Source: an uncultured Nitrososphaerales archaeon (GTDB lineage Archaea > Thermoproteota > Nitrososphaeria > Nitrososphaerales > Nitrososphaeraceae). From it: 48,371 nt of DNA. The notes beneath the pieces are model-generated. The model ran no database searches and was not told where the DNA came from. It worked only from the letters and a program-made list of their open reading frames with translations. The stretch lies in contig CAVPXM010000086.1 in the NCBI GenBank assembly GCA_963709405.1, positions 1-48,371 of the forward strand, read 5' to 3'. Of this stretch, positions 4,774-38,247 are shown one piece after another. Within the stretch, counting starts at the first letter, position 1. Each line of letters opens with the position of its first letter. A program made the position numbers and the translations under genes.

Positions 4774-5603
4774 AGCTGAGGATCTGAAGAGCATTTGTAA
4801 CTGTAAAGTCATACTAGCTATTTGAGCATTCTGAGTTGATACTCAAGCATGTAACTGAGATGTTGAGTTTGGGGTGCTTAGTCTCATCATGGAAACATTG
4901 TTACAAACAGCTACAAAAAATACGTCGAAACTAATTACTTCGATTCCCTTAGAGAAGAACATGCGGAGGCGGTGACACTCTAAACTTATGCGAACTGCAA
5001 AGACCGCAATCCGTGCAAAGGCTAGCGAGGGTCCTTGCGGATTAGAGAATGCGAAAATGGCCGTTTCTCAAGACAGACTGACTTTGGCTCAAACGAAGAA
5101 TCGTTAAAAAGGCCTGCAGTGAGCAACGCATTGGTGCTAAAAATCTGTGGGGTCTTCGAGTAAGGTTTGAAGCTCATGAGTATGTCTTAGAAAAAATACT
5201 TGAGGCTACAAAATCAATTATAAAAGTTCAAATAGATCTAGCTAATTTGCTATCGGTGGACAGAAAGGAGCCTAAAGGAGAACAGAAATTTAAGCCTGAC
5301 ACAAGAGCAATTCGAGATGCAACGGCTCACGCCAAGTTTAAAATCTACAAAGAGTCAGGAGACTTTGTAATTCATTTCAATAATACCGATGAGGGTTATC
5401 GATTTCAGAGGAGATTTTCGAGAAGTAATCATATATATGAACCAGTTATAACCCTTAAATTTTTCATTCGAAAGAAGAACTCATTCTTTAAATGAAGACC
5501 TTTTTGAAATAGTTAGTATTAAACCCGGTCAGTAAGATGAATCTACTATCCTTGGAGTATTAGTACCGCCTATAATATATAATGTCGGATCGATTTAAGA
5601 TAC

Positions 5604-8540: not shown

Positions 8541-9982
8541 CCAGTCGTGGACATGGCGATTAAGCGCTGCCGCCTGTGCGATTGGATCGGACCCGTAAGT
8601 GCGACTTTGAACATGGTTGCCTTCTTGCGATTGTTCAGGCGCTTGGCACGAGACCGAGCTGGCCGCATAATGGCAAGCTCGTCCCTCATGATGGCATCTT
8701 CGAGGATTTTGCCGTCACGAATGGTGTACATGTGGATCGCCATCCACTCGATGCGATTGCCCGTGCCGGGACGTCCGAGGAACTCCCCGCAATGCGTACC
8801 ACCGAAGCGATCGAGGATTACGACCTTATCGCCTTCCGCGACAACGTTAAGCACCTCGCCTCGCGCGTCGGGGATCGCTTGAATGAACGTCTCGTAGAGC
8901 TTTCGCCGGGCACCGGGTCCGACCTCGGGCAGTGGTCCCCAGGCGTCGATGCCTACTGCGAACATCGAGCGCAGGATGCGGCGCACCATATCGGAGAGAC
9001 GCTCCTTAGACAGCTTACCCTGCGCGTAGGCCTCCTTGAGCGGCTCCACGAACGGCTGCGCGTGCCAGTTGATCTTGTCGATCTGGAGACCGCTCTCCTG
9101 GTCGAGCCCCTTGAGCGCGAACTCCCAGCTCAGGGTGGCGCCCCAGTCGGACATCACCCATCCCGGGTAGGCCCACGCGCCCTTGAGCACGTCCTCGAGC
9201 AGTACGGCGTTGCCGCCGGCGTAGTCGCCGTTAATCTTGTTGTAGCCGGTCATCACCGAGCCTGGCTGCGAACGCTCGATCGCGATCTCGAACGCCAGCA
9301 GGTCGGATTCACGATGCGCGGCCGGGTCAATGATCGCGTCCAGCCAGTGGCGGTTGGTCTCGTTGCAGTTGAGCGAGTAGTGCTTGATCGTCGAGATCAC
9401 TCCTTCGCCCTGGATGCCGTTGATCGACTCGGCGGCGAGCACTGCACTCAGCAGCGGATCCTCGGATAGATACTCGAAGTTACGTCCGTTGCGTGGATCT
9501 CGGGCGAGGTTGATGCCGCCAGCCAGCTGGACATTGAAGCCTCTACTGCGCGCCTCGAGAGCGATCATGCGACCACTGGCACGGGCGAGCTCAGGGTTGA
9601 AACTCGAGTCGAGCACGATGCTAGCGGGCAGCGCTGTGGCCATGTCGCCCTCACGGAACCCGGGGTTGGTGACACCGAGGCTCGCGTCCCTCATCAGGAG
9701 CGCTGGGACACCGAGGCGCGGCACGCCGGGCGTGTAGCCCGCGCTCATGAGGGTTCCCATGGGGATGCGCACGTCTCTGGCTAACGGGATGACCGGGTTT
9801 TCTCCCACCACGCTGACAACTAGCGAGAACCGGTCGTCGTCGGTCATCTGCTCCTCGACCTCACGCGCCCGCACATCGGCCGGCGAATCTTGTGTAGCCG
9901 CGGATCTACTCTGTTGCGTCATGACAGCCTCCTCTAGACGGCCTTTGCATTGGTTTCCGTGCTCCGGTTGGTATTTCAGCAC
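8537..9982 (-). pseudogene. Chimera: GH3 beta-glucosidase N-terminal TIM-barrel fused in frame to a second SnoaL-like fragment
   Basis: GH3 motifs RDPRNGRNFEYLSEDP, TIKHY and nucleophile VMSDWGA. After ~8920 the sequence becomes SnoaL-like (VVAEGDKVV, GTHCGEFLGRPGTG, IRDGKI). The GH3 C-terminal domain is absent. Confidence 0.85.
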
Positions 9983-10396
9983 GAATTATAAATCTCATCG
10001 ATAAGATTGTATGATGAAATCTGTAAAAGACTTATTTCTATCCATCTAGTAGGTGGACAAATCATACGCGATTCATATGTTTTAATTGTGGTAACGTTTG
10101 GATTCAACAGATCAATAATGATGGCTGCATACTGTAAACAACTTTACCCTCTACCAAATTGATAATAGGATTCTTTATGATTCAATATGGGAAGTATTGG
10201 TAAACTAATAAACCCGTTCAAGTTACTTCATAGTAATCTAAGATTAACTGATGTATGCTTGCCGAGATTAAACTATAGAAAATAAATTCGTGTAACTACT
10301 TCACTTGGTACGTATTCACTGTAGTATTTGTTGCAATGCAATGCGATCAGAAGATATAAAAACACGTCTTAACAGGTATCAAATGCATGAATACAT

Positions 10397-27766: not shown

Positions 27767-28070
27767 TCAGAAAAATCCCCTTGACGGCAGAGTTAAGGTT
27801 GTTAAAAGGTTATCAAATAGGGCAGTATTCCCAAATAAAGTAACCAAGTAGTTGAGTTGTTCTCTAGGAAAATCCTTAATTTGCTGCAATATTCTCTCCT
27901 TACATGTCTGGGTATTAATTATGATAAGTCTTTTAGCATTATTATCATTCAGAGCTTCTAAAAAAAGCGTCATTTATAGACTTGTCTCTGAAGAAATAAC
28001 CAATACAGATGTAGATAGTATCAAACTTTAAGAATTTATTAAACGATTCATAGAGAGATACAAATGGCAG
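27767..28070 (-). pseudogene. SIR2-like (SIR2_2) domain protein, C-terminal remnant
   Basis: PFVSLYESFNKFL...ICIGYFFRDKSINDAF / LEAL...RLIIIN matches the IGYSFxDxxIN motif. There is a frameshift in an A/T homopolymer, and the 5' part is replaced by IS481. Confidence 0.6.
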
Positions 28071-28071
28071 G

Positions 28072-28384
28072 CTTAATCGTCGTAGATCAAGAATTGTCTC
28101 TTCTATTTCTGATGTTACCTTTCTACATGGAGTATTATGAGGTCTTTTAGAGTTATCTAGAAGTCCTTCTATCCCTTTCTGTTTGTATCTGTTATTCCAC
28201 TTGTAGTAAGTCTTTCTGGATGTACCGTATCTTTTACAAATATTAGATACTGTATCGCCAGTCCATTCTTTCTCATGTATTAGATTGAATTTAGTTATGA
28301 TTTCTATATGGATACACTTCCTGACAGCAGAAGTGTAACCCATGTCAGTAAGCTATAATGTCACCTATGTTAGGAAGTACAACA
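28072..28384 (-). mobile_element. IS481-family remnant (left end plus HTH region)
   Basis: Begins TGTTGTACTT on the minus strand. HEKEWTGD..ICKRYGTSRKTYYKW is homologous to the 45314 element and stops after TILDLR. Confidence 0.85.
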
Positions 28385-28548
28385 CCCAATCAACCAAAAC
28401 ATGGGAAGCCGAGGTGAGTGCATTCTGCTATATTATTGATGTTATTGACACATTAGTTGCAACCTCATGGGTTAGAACAGAGCTTATTCTAGATCTAGCT
28501 AATAAATCATATATCAAGTCATGTAACCATAAATAGCTGCATGCTATT

Positions 28549-28851
28549 TTGGGGATATGGAAGAAGAGAGAGAAACAAAAAACAAAAAAAATAGAGTTAT
28601 CCTTCCCCAAGTTACAATCACAAGAAGATAATGAATATATCTCAAAAGGAAAAGGTGGACAAGGGGAAATACTGGAGCGGTTTTCAGCTTCTGTGGAAGA
28701 GGTTTCAAGTTGGTACAAACAATACCAAGTAGACACAATAGAGTTATGGATCAGTGGTGTAATAGAAACTGGAGGAATAACTAAGTTAGTTGTTAGTGCT
28801 AAGGGCGAGGGTGGTTTGAGGGTCTTATTAAAGCCAAGAAATCAAGTATGA
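28549..28851 (+). CDS. Small Pepco/Trypco-like (peptidase co-occurring) protein
   Basis: The C-terminal half YQVDTIELWISGVIETGGITKLVVSAKGEGGLRVLLKP has the Gly-rich alternating beta-hairpin pattern of Pepco/Trypco domains. It lies directly upstream of a caspase. Confidence 0.6.
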   Translation: MGIWKKREKQKTKKIELSFPKLQSQEDNEYISKGKGGQGEILERFSASVEEVSSWYKQYQVDTIELWISGVIETGGITKLVVSAKGEGGLRVLLKPRNQV

Positions 28852-28968
28852 ACCAATTATGATATATAGACAGTTAATATAATTTATTAGCTTCACTAAT
28901 AACTTTTGTACGTAATATGGATTAATCTTATTATAATTGCCAAACTGAGTAAAACTATCCTAGGAAAA

Positions 28969-30415
28969 ATGAAAAATGGGCCTATAGTAATAGATCATGG
29001 GGAAGGAGAAAATATTACTACCAAAAAGAAGGCAATAGTAATCGGTGTTAGCGATTATAGCACCAACCTACAATCTCTTAACTTTTGCAAAAATGATGGA
29101 AAAGAGTTATCTGAGCTTCTGACATCGTTAGGATATGAAATTTTAGACAGTCATAGACTAATAGGATATATTAGATTTGATCAAATGAGAGAGGCAATTT
29201 ATGATTTCTTTGATAATGCATCTACCCAGGCCGATGAGACCCTTGTTTTCTATTTTTCTGGTCATGGTATACCAGCACCTGATGGAGATATGTGCCTTGC
29301 ATCCTCTGAAATAAATCCAGATGATCCTTACAGAAGAGGCTTTTCTTCCTACGAACTTACAAGGTTGATGCAGAGCAGCGTGTCATTGAGAGTGGTAACA
29401 ATTTTGGATTGTTGTTATAGTGGAGCAGCTAAGCTAAGCAAAGGACATGAAGACGATGCTGCAAAAATAGGGACCGACGCATTACGAAGCAAAGCAAGAA
29501 TACTTCAAGATGAGCAGCAAGGTGAAGGAAAATGTCTTTTAGCTGCAAGCCAAGCTCGCCCAAGAAGCTTACGGTCCAAAAAAACAAGACCATAGTATAT
29601 TTACTTACTATTTGCTCGAAGGATTAAGAGGAAATGAAAGATCTGTTGAAGTTAATGGTAATATTACGCCATATTCTTTAGGCAGCTACGTTTACAAGGT
29701 CATCATGAATCTTCCTCCAAAAAAGAGACCGAAACAGAAACCAATAACAAAAGTGGAGGCATCAGGCGATATTATACTTGCCAGTTATCCCAATCTTGTA
29801 AGGAGAGATTCTTCTGCTATTCTCACTCCTATTTCTTCTTCTGGCCTTCTTTTCTATTCCTTACTTCCAGAGCAGGTGTCACAACCTGCACAACAACGAC
29901 GACTAATATCACGATCACCTATCGCATCGCCTTACGCCTTAGATGAGGCAAGGCAAAAGACAAAAAAAGAACAATACGAGGCAGCACCAATTATAGCCAA
30001 AGCGGAGGAGAAAAAACAACCGCAACAACTACTCAGTAATTCTAAAGTGGCGATACTAATAGTAGTGATTGCTATAAGTCTAATTGTGGCATTTATTTTC
30101 ATCAGCGGAATACATACACAAGCACCCAATCATCTTCCATCAGCTATTGACCAGTCTATTATAACTAAGTTGAATACGCCTGTAAACATGACATTGGAAG
30201 GTATTGATCGAGATATACGTGATACAATAACTGCGGCTATCGTCACAATTCCATCTCATGGAACTTTACGTAATATCAACCAAGTTAGTGGTGTTATAAC
30301 TTATACGCCAAATCGGGACTTTGCTGGAGATGACAGCTTTACATACAAGGTAAATGATGGTAAAATAGATAGTAACAATATAGCTTTAGTGAAGATAAGA
30401 GTAGGTGTCCGGTAA
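28969..30415 (+). CDS. Membrane-anchored caspase-family (peptidase C14) protein with C-terminal Ig-like (Big_9/cadherin-like) domain; +1 frameshift at ~29557
   Basis: KKAIVIGVSDY, catalytic FYFSGHG and ILDCCYSG. SQA/AQEAY..HSIFTYYLLEGL spans the shift. TM VAILIVVIAISLIVAFIFISGI, then PSHGTL..ITYTPNRDFAGDDSFTYKVNDG. Confidence 0.9.
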
Positions 30416-30494
30416 GTGTATAGATCATCAACATGAGTGATGACAATATAACCTCTTTGACTTTATCCGATTTTGGTAATAAAGTGAGCAGCGT

Positions 30495-31750
30495 TTGGTA
30501 GCGAAAAAAAAGTCCGGAATAGAGCATACGAAAACTACATCCTCTGTCTTTCTACCATATTCTTCGTTTGCTGTCATATTGTCAGTGTTTCTCATGTTGT
30601 CCTCATTTACCACTGATATTGCCTTTAGTATTCCTAACCGTTATAACATACCATTAGTTGTTAATCATCCTCCTGTAGTCAAAGCTGGACCAGATCAAAC
30701 GGTAGAAGAAAATGGAACTGTAGTACTTCATGGCATAGCAAATGATTCTGATCCTGGTGATATAATCAGCTATTCATGGAGACAAATGGCTGGGCATGCT
30801 GTAAAATTAAGTAGCAGCAATAGCAAGAATCCGTCGTTTATTGCACCTAAGGTATCAGTTGATACTCAGCTGAGGTTTGCATTAACAGCTAGAGATGATA
30901 GAGGAGCTACAAGTATTACTCCTGCTAATGTTACTATTACAGTTGAACACATTAACCGTGCACTTGTAGCTAATGCTGGTACTGATCAGACAGTTAATGC
31001 AGGTTATGTTGTTATTTTGGATGGAAGTAAAAGCAGAGACCAGGACAATGATCCGTTGACTTACACCTGGAAAGAGACTGAAGGAACACCTGTAGTATTA
31101 AACGGTGCCAATACATCTATTGCTACCTTTACAGCTCCCAAAGGTATATCTTCAGACACAGATATGACATTTGAATTAACAGTTACTGATAGCAAGAATG
31201 CAACAAATACTTCTACTGTCAAAGTTACGGCCAAGTATGTACCACCACCGAATCAACCTTCAATAGCTAATGCTGGTTTAGATCAGACAGTTAATGCTGG
31301 AGATAAAGTTATTTTGTATGGTAGTGGTAGCAAAGATCCAGATGGTACTATAATATCCTACTCTTGGAAACAGTCTAGTGGTCCATCTGTTGCATTAAAC
31401 AGCTCTGACAGGGGAGGTAAAACATTTTCTGCCCCGCCTGTTTTATCCGTTACTACTTATCCGTTACTACTTTAGCTTTCTCTTTGACTGTCACAGATGA
31501 TAAAGGTGCTTCTAGTACTCCTGAGAATGTGGCTATCACTGTAAAACCACATGAGCCAATAGGTATCGGAGGCAATAAGACATCAAAACCTGTGTGTCAA
31601 TATATTCCTGGTCCTAGACATTCTTCTAATCTGATAAGCTCGTGTAATATGATATTGAGCATTCGTTATACTTCGTCAACAAGATTGTCAAGTCCTTCTA
31701 CGTCTATTAATTCGTCACTTTTAGCCCCTGCTATCCCCAAAATAATTTAG
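30495..31750 (+). pseudogene. Secreted PKD/REJ-repeat surface protein, frameshifted by a 14-bp tandem duplication
   Basis: Signal/TM segment and three repeats (NHPPVVKAGPDQTV, ANAGTDQTV, ANAGLDQTV; DGSKSRDQD; LTVTD). TTATCCGTTACTAC occurs twice at 31443-31470. Confidence 0.85.
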
Positions 31751-32437
31751 CCCCTTTATCCACTAGACATATTTTTCGAGATAACATATATCCTACTTCT
31801 GAAATATATATGTCTTCAATAAAGCCGAACGCTATTACGGAATGACTTACTGGCCATACTTTTGACATTTAGTGTTAACTATGACAAACTTAGGATATAA
31901 TATTTCCTAAATACTGGTAATGATTTTGGCATAGTTTTGTATACTGCTAAGGTTCGTTCTAAATAAGAATGACTTACCGTCAGAAGTAATGTTTTATATA
32001 TATATACAGCTCGAAGAGCATTAGAGGATTATTCTGAGTAAGGTACATAAATCTTGAAACCGTTCCTACAATTGATATAGACATTAAGTAACATTGTTAA
32101 CTTTAAAGGTAGAAATTCCTGCGAAGGATTTTGCAATAAGGCGCAATATTCAGGATAAATATGTGATACGGTAGAACTTATTATTAGCGGTAAATGGAAG
32201 GGGGTATCAGTTAACCAGTGGTTATATAAAGAATCGATAATTTACTAAGCCCGTAATATAACATGTCATACGTGTAGAATTTAATCATCTTAATGATTAG
32301 CACTGTAATTCTGAAATGATAAATATTGCGAGTAATCTTCTTGCATTTAGCATTTACATCGTTATAGAATGTAGAAATTTAGTATAAAAAATAAAGCAGT
32401 GCCTAAATCTTAGATTTACTTAATTTTTGTCGATTAA

Positions 32438-32710
32438 TTATTGTACTCCTATCACATTGACTGCATTACCATCGCCTTGCACCTGGTTAGCTAGATTTTG
32501 ACAATTAACATCAGAGGCTCCGTTACCATTACCACAGACATTTGCCTGGGCAATTGTTTGCTGATTATTGCCCCCGCCCCCTGATCTAGACTTTTTACAC
32601 TTGGCAAATGCATCTTGACTTGCAACTGCAGCGGTTATCACGATAGTAGATACAGCTATGACGGCAATAAGTGCGAGTATCTTATTGTTCATGATTAAGT
32701 ATGTTGACAC
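32438..32710 (-). CDS. Small secreted Asn/Gln/Gly-rich protein
   Basis: Signal peptide ending QDAFA, then NNQQTIAQANVCGNGNGASDVNCQNLANQVQGDGNAVNV. Confidence 0.75.
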   Translation of the reverse strand: MSTYLIMNNKILALIAVIAVSTIVITAAVASQDAFAKCKKSRSGGGGNNQQTIAQANVCGNGNGASDVNCQNLANQVQGDGNAVNVIGVQ

Positions 32711-32902
32711 GTGATTTATTTAATTTAAGAATATGTGTGCTCTAAGTTATTTCTAATTATTCTACTAGAAGATTAGGTTTAATTAATAAAAACATTAGAA
32801 TATATAATCACTACTTTAACAAAGCAGAAAGATAGTTGATAATAGATATCTATTCGGATAGCCTAGGTTATCGAACGACTTCCATGTTATCTTGACTGTC
32901 CC

Positions 32903-34843
32903 TCAAAAGAGTTGTTCACCGCGGTGTAGTTGATTTGCTATCTGATAAGTCCTAATTTGAGACCGCATTGTAGGAGAATGTGCAGCTAAATATCTGGAGA
33001 TCGCTAATAAAAAATTCACTCTTGCTATACTGTTAGTACTGATATTATCATTATTTTCCTCATCCAGAAGAGAATATTGTCTGGATGCTGCTTCAAGCAT
33101 TTGAATAGAGTGGAAGTTTCGATCTTCCCGTAACAAGAGCTTTACTAGGATAGAGATGAGTTGATCTGGATCCCCACCTCTATAAAGATAATCTGCTACC
33201 ATTTCTGAGGCTTCATTTACTCTCTGTTGCTTATCCAATAGGTCTGATAACCTACACCATATAGTTTTAGGTGAACGATTTATCCCATCGTTATTAATAT
33301 TATCATAGGTAGATCCTTTAGGAATGGTCGCTGATGGTATATTGAGGAAACGATTAAGGTATACTCTGATTGCAGCATCGAAAACTCCTCTCAACAGCTC
33401 AGTTGTAGGAATCCGTCTTAACCCTTGATGTAATGCATTCGCAAAAGTAAATGTGTGTAATATAGCATCCCAATCACTGAATTCATTTCGCGTATGAAAT
33501 TGTACTATTCGTAAAGCTGAAGCATAACATACAATGCTTGCCAACTCCCATTCGGTAGTACCTTGCTCTAATGCGCTTAATAATACATCTATTATTGATT
33601 GTGGATTATCACCCAATAGCACTGTTACCAAAGCATCTAAATCAATGATTGTGTTACTCCTCTTTCGGTGTGCCTTCTTACTTTTATCATCAACATAATT
33701 CGTTGTTTCTTCTTGTTGATCAGTTAGTCTCACAGCCTTACCTTTTTTTAAAGCTACTGGCAATTTACTAAAAGCACCTTCAAGAATAGCTACCAAGTCT
33801 ATCGGGTAACGCCAAGAGCTTGATTCTTCCATCCTTTCAGCAGACGCATAGCCAGTTACAAGACTAGTTAGTATTGATTCTATTAATATCCTGTCATGAT
33901 CCCAATCCAGTTTATCAATTGCTTCTAATGCTTTATTGGTGAAATCAAGGGTATGCCCTATATCAAGAAAACGGTGATCGGTGGCTGCCGCAAAAAGCAT
34001 ATCTGCGATCTGTTGTATATTAACACCAAGTTTTATGGCGGTAGCAATACATCTCTCTGCAGATTGACCATCACGTGATTCGATAAACTGCCTAAACCAG
34101 CGCTTGAGTGTAACTAAGTCAGGCCAAGGTCCTGGAAGTGGAGTAATTTCAAATCTAGGAGGCATCGAAACACAGTCTTCTGCCACAGCGCAAAGGCCTT
34201 GGTAAAGTGCATGTGGTCTATCTTCGATATCGAGATATGGCGTCATATTCATCATACATGTGAGGACAGTTAGTCCCTGTCCCCAGCCAGATTGCTTATA
34301 ATGGGTGCCAAAATCGAGACCAATTCGAAACACATTTACAAGTTTAGATTCATTCTTGTTACTTCCAGTTTCACATTCATCCAGTAATGCGATAACTGCT
34401 TTAGCTATAGTTAACCTGAGATTTTGCTTTAGCCCACTACATAATAGCATTTGATAATGAGAAGTCACATCGACAGAAGACAGCGATGAAATACTCACCC
34501 AAACTTCATTTTTATTTCTAATCTTTACAGGAAAAGATCTCACATCACCAGCCCATTGGTCAAATGTACCACCACCGTTAAGATCAAAGCGTGCATGATG
34601 CCAATGGCATGTAAGGATAGCATCTTTAACAGTACCTTGTATTAGCGGAAAGCCCATATGAGGACATCTGTTATCTATTGCATAAACTTTTGAATTACGA
34701 TAGAAAAGAGCGACTATATGTCTTTGAATAGGTACAGATAAGCATTGACCAACAGCGTTTTGTATATCAAATAAACTTGCTGCAAATACATAATGGTCAT
34801 CATTACCATTTACTTTTGACATGTTTGTCACACACATAGCCAA
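32903..34843 (-). CDS. Rieske [2Fe-2S] domain protein with long helical repeat region
   Basis: NRCPHMGFPL and TCHWHHARFDL Rieske ligands, plus recurring His motifs GHTLDF, LHTFTFANA, FHSIQM. Confidence 0.9.
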   Translation of the reverse strand: MAMCVTNMSKVNGNDDHYVFAASLFDIQNAVGQCLSVPIQRHIVALFYRNSKVYAIDNRCPHMGFPLIQGTVKDAILTCHWHHARFDLNGGGTFDQWAGDVRSFPVKIRNKNEVWVSISSLSSVDVTSHYQMLLCSGLKQNLRLTIAKAVIALLDECETGSNKNESKLVNVFRIGLDFGTHYKQSGWGQGLTVLTCMMNMTPYLDIEDRPHALYQGLCAVAEDCVSMPPRFEITPLPGPWPDLVTLKRWFRQFIESRDGQSAERCIATAIKLGVNIQQIADMLFAAATDHRFLDIGHTLDFTNKALEAIDKLDWDHDRILIESILTSLVTGYASAERMEESSSWRYPIDLVAILEGAFSKLPVALKKGKAVRLTDQQEETTNYVDDKSKKAHRKRSNTIIDLDALVTVLLGDNPQSIIDVLLSALEQGTTEWELASIVCYASALRIVQFHTRNEFSDWDAILHTFTFANALHQGLRRIPTTELLRGVFDAAIRVYLNRFLNIPSATIPKGSTYDNINNDGINRSPKTIWCRLSDLLDKQQRVNEASEMVADYLYRGGDPDQLISILVKLLLREDRNFHSIQMLEAASRQYSLLDEENNDNISTNSIARVNFLLAISRYLAAHSPTMRSQIRTYQIANQLHRGEQLF

Positions 34844-35296
34844 TAGATAAATGATCTAATAAAAACATAAAGTCTCTGAAAATACCAAACTTATTTGTCT
34901 GAGATGATTACTAACCAAAACAAGTTAATTAACTAGATAATATCTCTTTTCTGCTTCCTATCAAACGCGCTCTTCTTTTATACTATACAGAGTATAAAGG
35001 GTCAGAATTTTTAGACAGGAATTTCGACATAGTACTTAAACTATTGAAATTTAGTTCTTGCTATAATTAGGAATAACAAAGGATTGTCTAATTTTGAATT
35101 TGCTAATCATTATGTATTATAGATACTTTATAATGACCAATCTTGAGATTATTACAATTAGCTATCTAATCATTAATGAATTATGATAATTTAAAATTGA
35201 ATACTGTCTCATGAGCACATTGCGATCTCCTCACAGTATTGTGATAAACACAAATCGTTCAGATGGAGGGAGATAAATCTTGATTTTTCAGTATTA

Positions 35297-35512
35297 ATGC
35301 ATCGTGATACTAATATCGACAGATGGCCCCACAACTACGGGTCTAGTGGTGGATATGCACTAGCATATTTGAATATTGCAGATAATCTTCCAGACAGTAG
35401 TGAAGTCGAATCGGATCTCTTGGATCATGTTCCGATAGATACAAAGCGTATTCTCGATCTTGGTACAAGCTATGGTAAACTAGCAGAGTCTGACAATAGC
35501 TATCTTTTGTAA
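35297..35512 (+). pseudogene. Class I SAM-dependent methyltransferase N-terminal fragment
   Basis: Motif I region KRILDLGTSYGKL, followed by truncation. Confidence 0.6.
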
Positions 35513-37674: not shown

Positions 37675-38247
37675 TGTTGTACTTACTGACATAGGTGACA
37701 TTATAGCTTACAGACATGGGTTACACTTCTGTCGGGAAGTGAATCCATATAGAAATCAGAATAAGGTTTAATCTAATACATGAAAAAGAATGGACTGGTG
37801 ATACCATATGTATTATTTGTAAAAGATATGGTATATCCAGAAAGACTTACTACAAGTGGAATAATAGATACAAGCAGAAAGGGATAGAAGGCCTATCAGA
37901 TAACTCCAGAAGGCCTCATAAAATCAACTACAGGAAGGTAACACCAGAAGTAGAAGAGACTATACTTGATCTACGATTAACTAAGAGATTTGGATGTAGC
38001 AGGATCAAATTTCGACTAAAAAGAATCATTGGAATCTCATTAAGCACCCGAACTATATACAAGATACTAAAGAGACATTGTCTTAATATCCTCATGTGTA
38101 AGGCCAAAGCAAGAACTTACAAACGGTTTGTCATGAAGCATCCAAATGATATGGTGCAAGTGGATATCCTTGGCCCTTTCTATCTGAGTAATTCCAGTCA
38201 AAGGAATTACATCATTAGTTGCTTAGATGATTGTTCTAGGAAGGTAG
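37675..38247 (+). mobile_element. IS481-family element, left part only
   Basis: Near-identical to 45314-45887. Identity stops at AGGAAGGTAG, just before the IS3 IR. Confidence 0.92.

Follow-up and report, generated by a model that had tools for sequence, protein, structure and literature searches.

A conserved gene pair of an unannotated small protein and a caspase-like peptidase in Nitrososphaerales archaea, with a weak resemblance to bacterial Pepco modules

In 2022 Johnson and colleagues reportedly described a bacterial gasdermin accompanied by a caspase-like protease, gasdermins being proteins of some 240-300 amino acids (aa) whose fold differs from that of the small proteins considered here. 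Kaur et al. 2020 (PMC7159879) named Trypco1 and Trypco2, small proteins that occur together with peptidases of the trypsin type; the words 'CATASP' and 'Trypco' are absent from the main text of Kaur et al. 2021. A recent preprint (Evans et al. 2025, bioRxiv 10.1101/2025.11.14.688446) treats Pepco as the same thing as Trypco1/2 and describes it as a protein of 117 aa found beside proteases of the serine or cysteine type and common among Actinobacteria and cyanobacteria. In that account, Pepco carries an N-terminal amphipathic helix and is pre-assembled into beta-barrels of 9-10 subunits that resist heat and sodium dodecyl sulfate, and it becomes toxic once the protease Avs4 has stripped a 2-kDa C-terminal tail (about 20 residues, charged and proline-rich) after Ile97, while EACC1 is a monomer with an autoinhibitory domain (Evans et al. 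2025). The word 'archaea' is absent from the main text of this preprint, whose supplements may list archaeal Pepco homologues. We report here on a stretch of 48,371 nucleotides (nt) from an uncultured Nitrososphaerales archaeon (contig CAVPXM010000086.1, hereafter the window), in which a small gene of an unannotated family is followed by the gene of a caspase-like peptidase of family C14. We argue that the two genes are a conserved pair, and that the small protein resembles Pepco and Trypco1 weakly but specifically.

The small gene and the caspase gene form a conserved gene pair. A metagenome survey found 67 loci of the small gene, of which five were dropped (three without a match among open reading frames (ORFs) and two fragments below 60 bits), and in 43 of the 62 loci kept a caspase gene lies at most 700 bp from the small gene, either downstream in the same orientation (20 pairs), upstream and divergent (22 pairs) or, in a single case, convergent. 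Merging at 90% identity reduced these loci to 42 clusters, 26 with a caspase, four without and 12 whose flanks are too short; caspase-less clusters were counted only where at least 1 kb was present on both sides, so that the informative clusters number 30, with a caspase neighbour in 26. Among species-representative genomes, 21 distinct loci were found and a peptidase is adjacent in 12 of them. A homologue of the window caspase accompanies the small gene in nine loci (the window, L002, L046, which equals L003, L004, L005, L009, L013, L045, which equals L014, and L044), some of them partial: the caspase is spread over several frames in L002 and L009, its N-terminus lies off the contig in L004, and in L005 a decayed remnant lies directly upstream of the caspase, with the intact small gene at a distance of 3.7 kb. 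A second caspase clade is found in two further loci, L006 and L007, the protein of the latter being 728 aa long and matching PF00656 at 3e-17, and in L040 the small gene stands divergent from a gene for a 1220-aa protein with Trypsin_2, a STAND-type NTPase and pentapeptide repeats, and a nucleotide cyclase gene is also present. As two caspase clades and a trypsin-STAND protein all serve as partners, the partner is best described as 'a peptidase' and not as one lineage. Paired genes occur in two families of the order, and Nitrososphaeraceae and Nitrosarchaeum are among the record titles. The linkage to a protease, which the initial annotation of this locus had proposed to look for in gene neighbourhoods, is thus borne out by both surveys, and the small protein and the caspase very probably work together. 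The L040 locus (G360:C145) comes from an archaeon of the window's own taxonomic family, and its head-to-head trypsin-STAND gene with a nucleotide cyclase after it makes up an Avs-like context.

The small ORF described in the initial annotation is present at 28549-28851 on the plus strand as claimed, with the quoted peptide VDTIELWISGVIETGGITKLVVSAKGEGGLRVLLKP in its 100-aa translation, a TTG start and no in-frame ATG. The start itself has had to be corrected. The database proteins P0002 and P0003 have a 97-aa form that begins at an ATG, and the true start in the window is, judging from this comparison, most likely the ATG at 28557, with a product of 97 aa beginning MEEERETKNKKIELSF...; the frame opens at a TTG in the window because the A8 run at 28584-28591 holds one extra A, the relative L001 (97-99% identical) having seven A at this place. 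Relatives of the protein are numerous. A word-seeded search, which admits only proteins of 55-175 aa, returned 199 database clusters at E<=0.01, and among the 120 of these that were listed lengths run from 90 to 121 aa, no Pfam domain is annotated and the only name is 'hypothetical protein'; a HMMER profile search of 1.84 billion representative proteins, with no limit on length, returned 232 representatives at E<=1e-3, the best 150 of which range from 34 to 215 aa. An alignment of 24 sequences (A1) has a mean column identity of 61% and 28 invariant columns, including the whole SAKGEGG run, the LKP motif, after which 1-10 residues follow, three residues of WISG (its W is nearly invariant), and K33 and G34. 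A scan of 100 family representatives against NCBIfam gave no informative family, PADLOC gave no match to the small protein, and no relatives were found in viral contigs. On the strength of these sequences, the small protein, which occurs in ammonia-oxidising archaea of both soil and sea, belongs to a real, unannotated family.

The layout of the protein can be read from the alignments and from AlphaFold2 models. An N-terminal strand (IELxFP) is followed by an acidic and glycine-rich linker with an S-[KR]-G motif, an amphipathic helix and a four-stranded glycine-rich beta unit (WISG...ETGG...SAKGEGG...LKP). By eye, a basic residue followed by glycine is found in the linker of most, not all, of 35 N-termini, and an acidic run is also there. 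With 35 sequences the AlphaFold2 model reached a mean predicted local distance difference test (pLDDT) of 57.5, and with 100 sequences a mean of 71.8 and a predicted template modelling score of 0.51; in the latter model the conserved IELxFP forms a strand at 11-17, pLDDT is below 50 at 24-27 and 29-36, and one further strand (41-45) and a helix (46-52) precede strands at 56-64, 67-71, 74-78 and 86-93. Foldseek of both models against the PDB gave no match at E<=0.001, and a PDB sequence-profile search gave chance matches only (E>4). That no solved structure is like these models agrees with the preprint, whose authors state that they did not obtain a Pepco structure at high resolution (Evans et al. 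2025). A complex of four copies of the small protein was modelled with a score of 0.27, the mark being 0.42, a value that tells neither for assembly nor against it.

A C14 protease encoded in the same orientation just downstream had also been claimed, and is indeed there, with a gap of 117 nt between the stop codon of the small gene at 28851 and the protease ATG at 28969. The ORF at 28969-29592 matches Peptidase_C14 (PF00656) with E=5e-19 and 69.3 bits, the cut-off being 21.4. The His-Cys dyad that was claimed is present as well: His99 and Cys149, whose catalytic roles we presume from the metacaspase motif, both lie in a domain that passes the cut-off. The caspase frame as assembled is, however, split at about 29557. 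Read from 29558, the second part of the gene encodes the rest of the caspase domain, then a Lys/Pro-rich linker, a hydrophobic helix and an Ig-like domain. The C14 domain has no signal peptide and, as far as topology can be told from the sequence, is probably cytoplasmic, with the Ig-like domain outside the cell. C-terminal modules differ among the homologues, with tetratricopeptide repeats (TPR) in L046, L044, L002 and L004, a transmembrane (TM) helix and Big_9 in the window, and a region without Pfam match in L013 and L045. The PADLOC caspase model PDLC02987 matches the window protein at 1.1e-15 and that of L007 at 1.7e-48 over its full length. Orthocaspases and metacaspase-like enzymes share the Peptidase_C14 domain and the His/Cys dyad with these proteins, whereas the window enzyme adds one TM helix and a putatively extracellular Big_9 domain, and has a dedicated, conserved small partner gene.

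To what extent the small family is related to Pepco and Trypco was assessed with the Pfam models of Pepco (PF24393, cut-off 27 bits), Trypco1 (PF19493, 24.6 bits) and Trypco2 (PF19631). When 100 family representatives were compared one by one with Pfam at E<=5, Pepco was matched by eight and Trypco1 by seven, while each of the 47 other families was matched by at most two; at E<=0.01, Pepco and Trypco1 retain one representative each. The best Pepco match, P0228, scores 18 bits (E=0.0043), its residues 43-116 lying colinear on positions 35-111 of the 112 of Pepco, and residues 61-118 of the same protein match positions 35-92 of the small-family profile. For Trypco1 the best E is 0.0081, and P0224 (13.1 bits) is colinear on positions 32-95 of 98. 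Trypco2 is not among the 25 families listed for the 100 representatives; in a control with 100 unrelated neighbour ORFs (60-220 aa), the 25 families listed include every one with at least two members, and Pepco and Trypco1 are both absent from them. The ESM-Atlas points in the same direction: the nearest named clusters of P0002 and of a 43%-identical Nitrosarchaeum member are Pepco and/or Trypco1, with scores of 0.84-0.88 (scores below 0.9 count as leads only) and 181-198 shared features, and nine and eight, respectively, of the ten best named clusters share the family or clan. The Pepco, Trypco1 and Trypco2 models found no match at E<=1 in the window's own genome, and the Pepco model found none over cut-off in the L001 genome (G742) or among 301 genomes from its phylum; tblastn against plasmids gave one chance match for P0228 and none for P0224, and P0228 has four database relatives only, none of them annotated. 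The label 'Pepco/Trypco-like' given in the initial annotation therefore needs qualification, since the window protein has no Pfam match at E<=10 and is not placed in Pepco/Trypco by the defining models, while the excess of weak matches and the ESM-Atlas neighbours speak for the likeness. The resemblance to Pepco and Trypco1 is weak but specific and membership is not established; in our judgement there is a good chance that the small family is truly homologous to them.

How the archaeal pair compares with the described modules is best seen with SsPepco and SsAvs4 of Streptomyces subrutilus. Both consist of a stand-alone protein of about 100-120 aa beside a trypsin- or caspase-like peptidase; in both, the neighbouring peptidase is fused to varied sensor parts; a helix and a glycine-rich beta region, as Pepco has them, are predicted by AlphaFold2 for the archaeal protein; and the L040 member stands beside a trypsin-STAND NTPase as SsPepco stands beside Avs4. 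They differ in that the small family described here is archaeal, falls below the Pfam cut-offs and has a caspase as its partner nearly always, and in that it has an N-terminal strand and a predicted disordered linker, whereas the arming cut of Pepco is C-terminal. The mechanism put forward in the initial annotation, with cleavage releasing an oligomerising, membrane-damaging beta-structure, thus departs from the account given for Pepco, whose barrel is assembled before its tail is removed. As to the EACC1-caspase modules (such as the Ktedonobacter EACC1 with Avs12), the window protein has no Pfam match at E<=10 of any kind, and no EACC1 entry came up among the 25 families that the 100 representatives matched most often. 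As in the bacterial gasdermin system, a caspase-like protease (the caspases here match PDLC02987) lies beside a putative pore-forming substrate, but the small protein, of about 97 residues, matches neither a gasdermin nor anything in Pfam or PADLOC.

The reading that we prefer is that the small gene and the caspase are a protease-effector pair of the kind of the bacterial Pepco-protease modules, and we give this reading, with its full mechanism, a probability of about 0.45. In it the caspase would be the switch, for which the TM-tethered extracellular Ig-like domain of the window enzyme could be the sensor, a role that elsewhere may fall to the TPR or Pfam-less C-terminal regions, and the 97-aa protein would be both substrate and effector. 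The activated caspase would cut the linker and so free the beta unit from the N-terminal strand; because the family has no C-terminal tail but a conserved, disordered N-terminal linker, we infer that the cut would fall in this linker. Characterised prokaryotic orthocaspases prefer Arg/Lys. Candidate cut sites are the position after the conserved basic residue, if Arg/Lys is preferred here too, or the acidic run. Once freed, the beta unit would assemble, or alter its shape, to give an oligomer that damages membranes, by which an infected or stressed cell would be stopped or killed. What the sequences show is that the genes are paired and conserved, that the catalytic residues are there, that the family is a patchily distributed accessory one and that it has a weak but specific likeness to Pepco/Trypco1; that the caspase cuts the small protein, where it would do so, and that the product oligomerises, acts on membranes and serves in defence are inferences. 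A stronger version appears to us rather doubtful: Archaea would here have their first death module in which a caspase gates a pore-former, a deeply divergent Pepco relative, widespread in ammonia-oxidising archaea, in which a cut at the S-[KR]-G of the disordered N-terminal linker releases a capping strand where bacterial Pepco has its C-terminal tail trimmed, and in the window an event at the cell surface could set off the death switch from outside through the Ig-like domain. As protease-licensed small pore-formers are now described in bacteria, the archaeal pair would not be categorically new; it would be a divergent archaeal variant, linked to a caspase and overlooked by the present models, in which the geometry of arming is probably different.

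Several observations weigh against the protease-effector reading. The archaeal family has no counterpart of the charged, proline-rich C-terminal tail of SsPepco, as only 1-10 residues follow LKP. The window protein finds zero Pfam families at E<=10, no family member among the 100 representatives passes a Pfam cut-off (the best reaching 18 bits against 27), neither four close relatives of P0228 nor P0213 nor five divergent archaeal members match Pepco or Trypco at E<=10, and the Pepco model exceeds its cut-off in 0 of 401 genomes of the phylum. The peptidase neighbour is missing in nine of the 21 genome loci, where the neighbour is a metallophosphoesterase (L038, L039), MarR (L041, L042) or a conserved gene of unknown function (L036, L037, L047), or else the contig is short (L008) or a deletion is present (L001). 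In the window the pair is not flanked by recognised defence genes, its neighbours being a histidine kinase, an insertion sequence (IS) fragment and PKD proteins, and as assembled there both genes carry a frameshift. Finally, a hydrophobic, signal-like segment is found at the N-terminus of 25 of the 100 remote representatives and of none of the 35 in the archaeal set, and such N-termini fit an exported protein better than a cytoplasmic effector. Carriers of this segment include P0201, P0224, P0251, P0253, P0267 and P0269, and some N-terminal extensions are 60-120 aa long.

The strongest competitor, unlikely as we hold it to be, is that the small protein regulates the caspase, as inhibitor, chaperone or activating adaptor, and is no death effector, the true substrates being elsewhere in the cell. 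Gene pairing fits a regulator as well as it fits a substrate, the family lacks the C-terminal tail of Pepco, and the divergent transcription of 22 of the 43 pairs permits separate control of the two genes; defensive caspases that act independently of an effector are also reported (Evans et al. 2025). On the other hand, the weak matches and the ESM-Atlas neighbours point specifically to Pepco/Trypco1, a reported effector, and the family also occurs beside a trypsin-STAND protein, where an inhibitor specific for the caspase fold is not expected.

Somewhat less probable again is a housekeeping or envelope role, in which the small beta-rich protein would be processed, for some cell-surface or stress function, by a caspase anchored in the membrane. 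The signal-like N-termini of the remote relatives would suit such a role, as would the presumably extracellular Ig-like domain of the window caspase and the PKD-domain surface proteins after it, the absence of defence genes nearby, and the conservation of the C-terminal half of the small protein (mean column identity 61%), which is unusual for a conflict gene. The distribution of the family tells against it. Of 401 genomes that sample the class, 19 carry the small family (one of them, G365, being unpublished); with G000 not counted, it occurs in 12 of 78 of the window's taxonomic family and in five of 223 of the next family, and the window's own genome has a single copy. A near-identical strain differs too: L001 keeps the small gene and has no counterpart of window positions 28988-35495, a 6.5-kb stretch with the caspase, PKD-domain genes, a small glycine-rich secreted protein and a 646-aa protein with a Rieske motif, at the edges of which no repeats were found. 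The C-terminal regions of the caspase are swappable (TPR, TM-Ig or Pfam-less) and one partner is a STAND NTPase protease. Patchy distribution, absence of the caspase in L001, swappable C-termini and the STAND partner are the marks of accessory conflict systems, in keeping with the protease-effector reading.

We regard as equally improbable that the module is dead in the window genome, its two single-base insertions being real and the locus a decaying remnant beside IS debris. One extra base splits the caspase into 28969-29592 and 29612-30415, the sequence at the break being AGCTCGCCC in the window and AGCTGCCC in the orthologue of L005; this orthologue is 81% identical and its matched parts, at 9018-10244, lie in one frame, the locus stopping before the end of the gene. 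Both window genes are thus frameshifted, an IS481-like helix-turn-helix (HTH) fragment lies at 27945-28343, the caspase is lost in L001 and the L005 copy directly upstream of the caspase is decayed, all of which would agree with a dead module. Against it stand the Logan contigs of four soil-metagenome runs (X1-X4) that were aligned to 28400-30500: X1, X2 and X3, which represent two studies, have one letter fewer both at 28584 and at 29557, so that 3/3 covering runs are without the extra letters (X4 has no coverage at either place), at Logan depths of only about 3-6 and with the proviso that the best-matching run may be the source sample of the window assembly. Both frames are open in these contigs, and intact forms consequently exist in nature. 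One of the extra letters sits in an A8 homopolymer, and apart from the extra letters no stop interrupts either frame along its whole length, which fits assembly errors or a very recent change; the two breaks in the window are either the one or the other. The A7 run at 29578-29584 was considered as the site of the caspase frameshift and was ruled out by the alignment with L005, which puts the break at about 29557. In the L005 locus the small-gene remnant upstream of the caspase, at 8790-8909, has a broken frame and has lost SAKGEGG, and an intact paralogue lies at 4992-5258. A further run of A, at 30011-30016, also varies in length among the runs (Table 1): in its short form the caspase would end about six codons later, before its membrane helix, and the TM and Ig-like part would be cut off in another frame, a difference that may be phase variation or a strain difference.

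A chance adjacency of two genes with unrelated functions deserves hardly any credence, for although nine of the 21 genome loci are without a peptidase neighbour, 26 of the 30 informative clusters from metagenomes have a caspase no more than 700 bp away and the pairing recurs in two taxonomic families and in two gene orientations.

Table 1. Positions in the window of the small gene, the caspase gene and the sequence features discussed in the text.
Feature	Position	Strand	Basis or remark
Small gene as assembled	28549 (TTG)	+	Sole opening of the frame in the window
Small gene, Pepco-like family (weak resemblance), most likely extent	28557..28851	+	97 aa once one A of the A8 run is removed
A8 run	28584..28591	+	One letter longer than in L001 and the X1, X2 and X3 contigs; shifts the N-terminal frame of the small gene
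Predicted disordered linker codons (about residues 18-40 of the 97-aa form)	28618..28677	+	AlphaFold2 pLDDT; holds the conserved S-[KR]-G; putative cleavage region
Spacer between small gene and caspase gene, 117 nt	28852..28968	+	Stop 28851, protease ATG 28969
Caspase gene, taken as one unit	28969..30415	+	C14 domain, linker, one transmembrane helix, C-terminal Ig-like domain
Presumed catalytic His99 codon, in FYFSGHG	29263..29265	+	Translation
Presumed catalytic Cys149 codon, in LDCCYSG	29413..29415	+	Translation
Extra base splitting the caspase frame	29557 (about)	+	Missing in L005 and in the X1, X2 and X3 contigs
A6 run	30011..30016	+	Two letters shorter in the X1, X2 and X4 contigs; X3 as in the window
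Hydrophobic stretch VAILIVVIAISLIVAFIFISGI, putative transmembrane helix	30047..30112	+	Translation
Big_9 / cadherin-like Ig domain	30128..30376	+	PF17963 E=9.7e-13; PF17892 E=2.1e-9

The surroundings of the pair call for a few remarks of their own. Just upstream of the small gene, the minus-strand ORF at 27945-28343 is a truncated IS481-type transposase reduced to its HTH part (PF13551, PF13011), and related IS481-type copies are found at 28080-28384 and 37675-37920 of the window and also in L001. Downstream of the caspase, a PKD/K319L-like repeat protein occupies two frames, 30495-31475 and 31484-31750, a split that may be another single-base assembly error. The L001 locus is a 248-kb contig recorded as 'uncultured Acidobacteriota bacterium' that shares 97-99.8% identity with the window across more than 8 kb; because of this near-identity to an archaeal sequence, its bin is probably mislabelled or mixed. 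The genome in question, G742, measures 5.7 Mb, and the sample of its phylum holds genomes of bacterial size. In two loci of the sister family (L038, 4754-6270, and L039, 4877-6273) the small gene overlaps by 4 nt the end of a gene for a calcineurin-like phosphoesterase of 376-414 aa, and no peptidase was seen in either locus; metallophosphoesterases are listed among protease-associated effectors (Evans et al. 2025). The neighbour ORFs of the genome loci (A4) include two with a match to the T4 gp19 tail-tube family (6.7e-42) and another two with a match to the Emfourin protease-inhibitor family (3.3e-18). A scan for promoters and terminators of bacterial type, a model unsuited to an archaeon, stayed at chance level in the window, and there was no RNA run among the sequencing runs found to carry this stretch.

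Ammonia-oxidising archaea drive nitrification in soils and oceans, and a literature search combining caspase, ammonia-oxidizing archaea and defense returned nothing on the topic by title or abstract. If the protease-effector reading is true, the logic of the protease-licensed pore-former, as known from bacterial Pepco, EACC1 and gasdermins and from the caspase-gasdermin pairs of animals, would reach into the Archaea. A family missed by the Pfam models would be gained, together with a second arming route for such a pore, and a conserved 'hypothetical protein' with 232 representative clusters would receive a name and a testable function.

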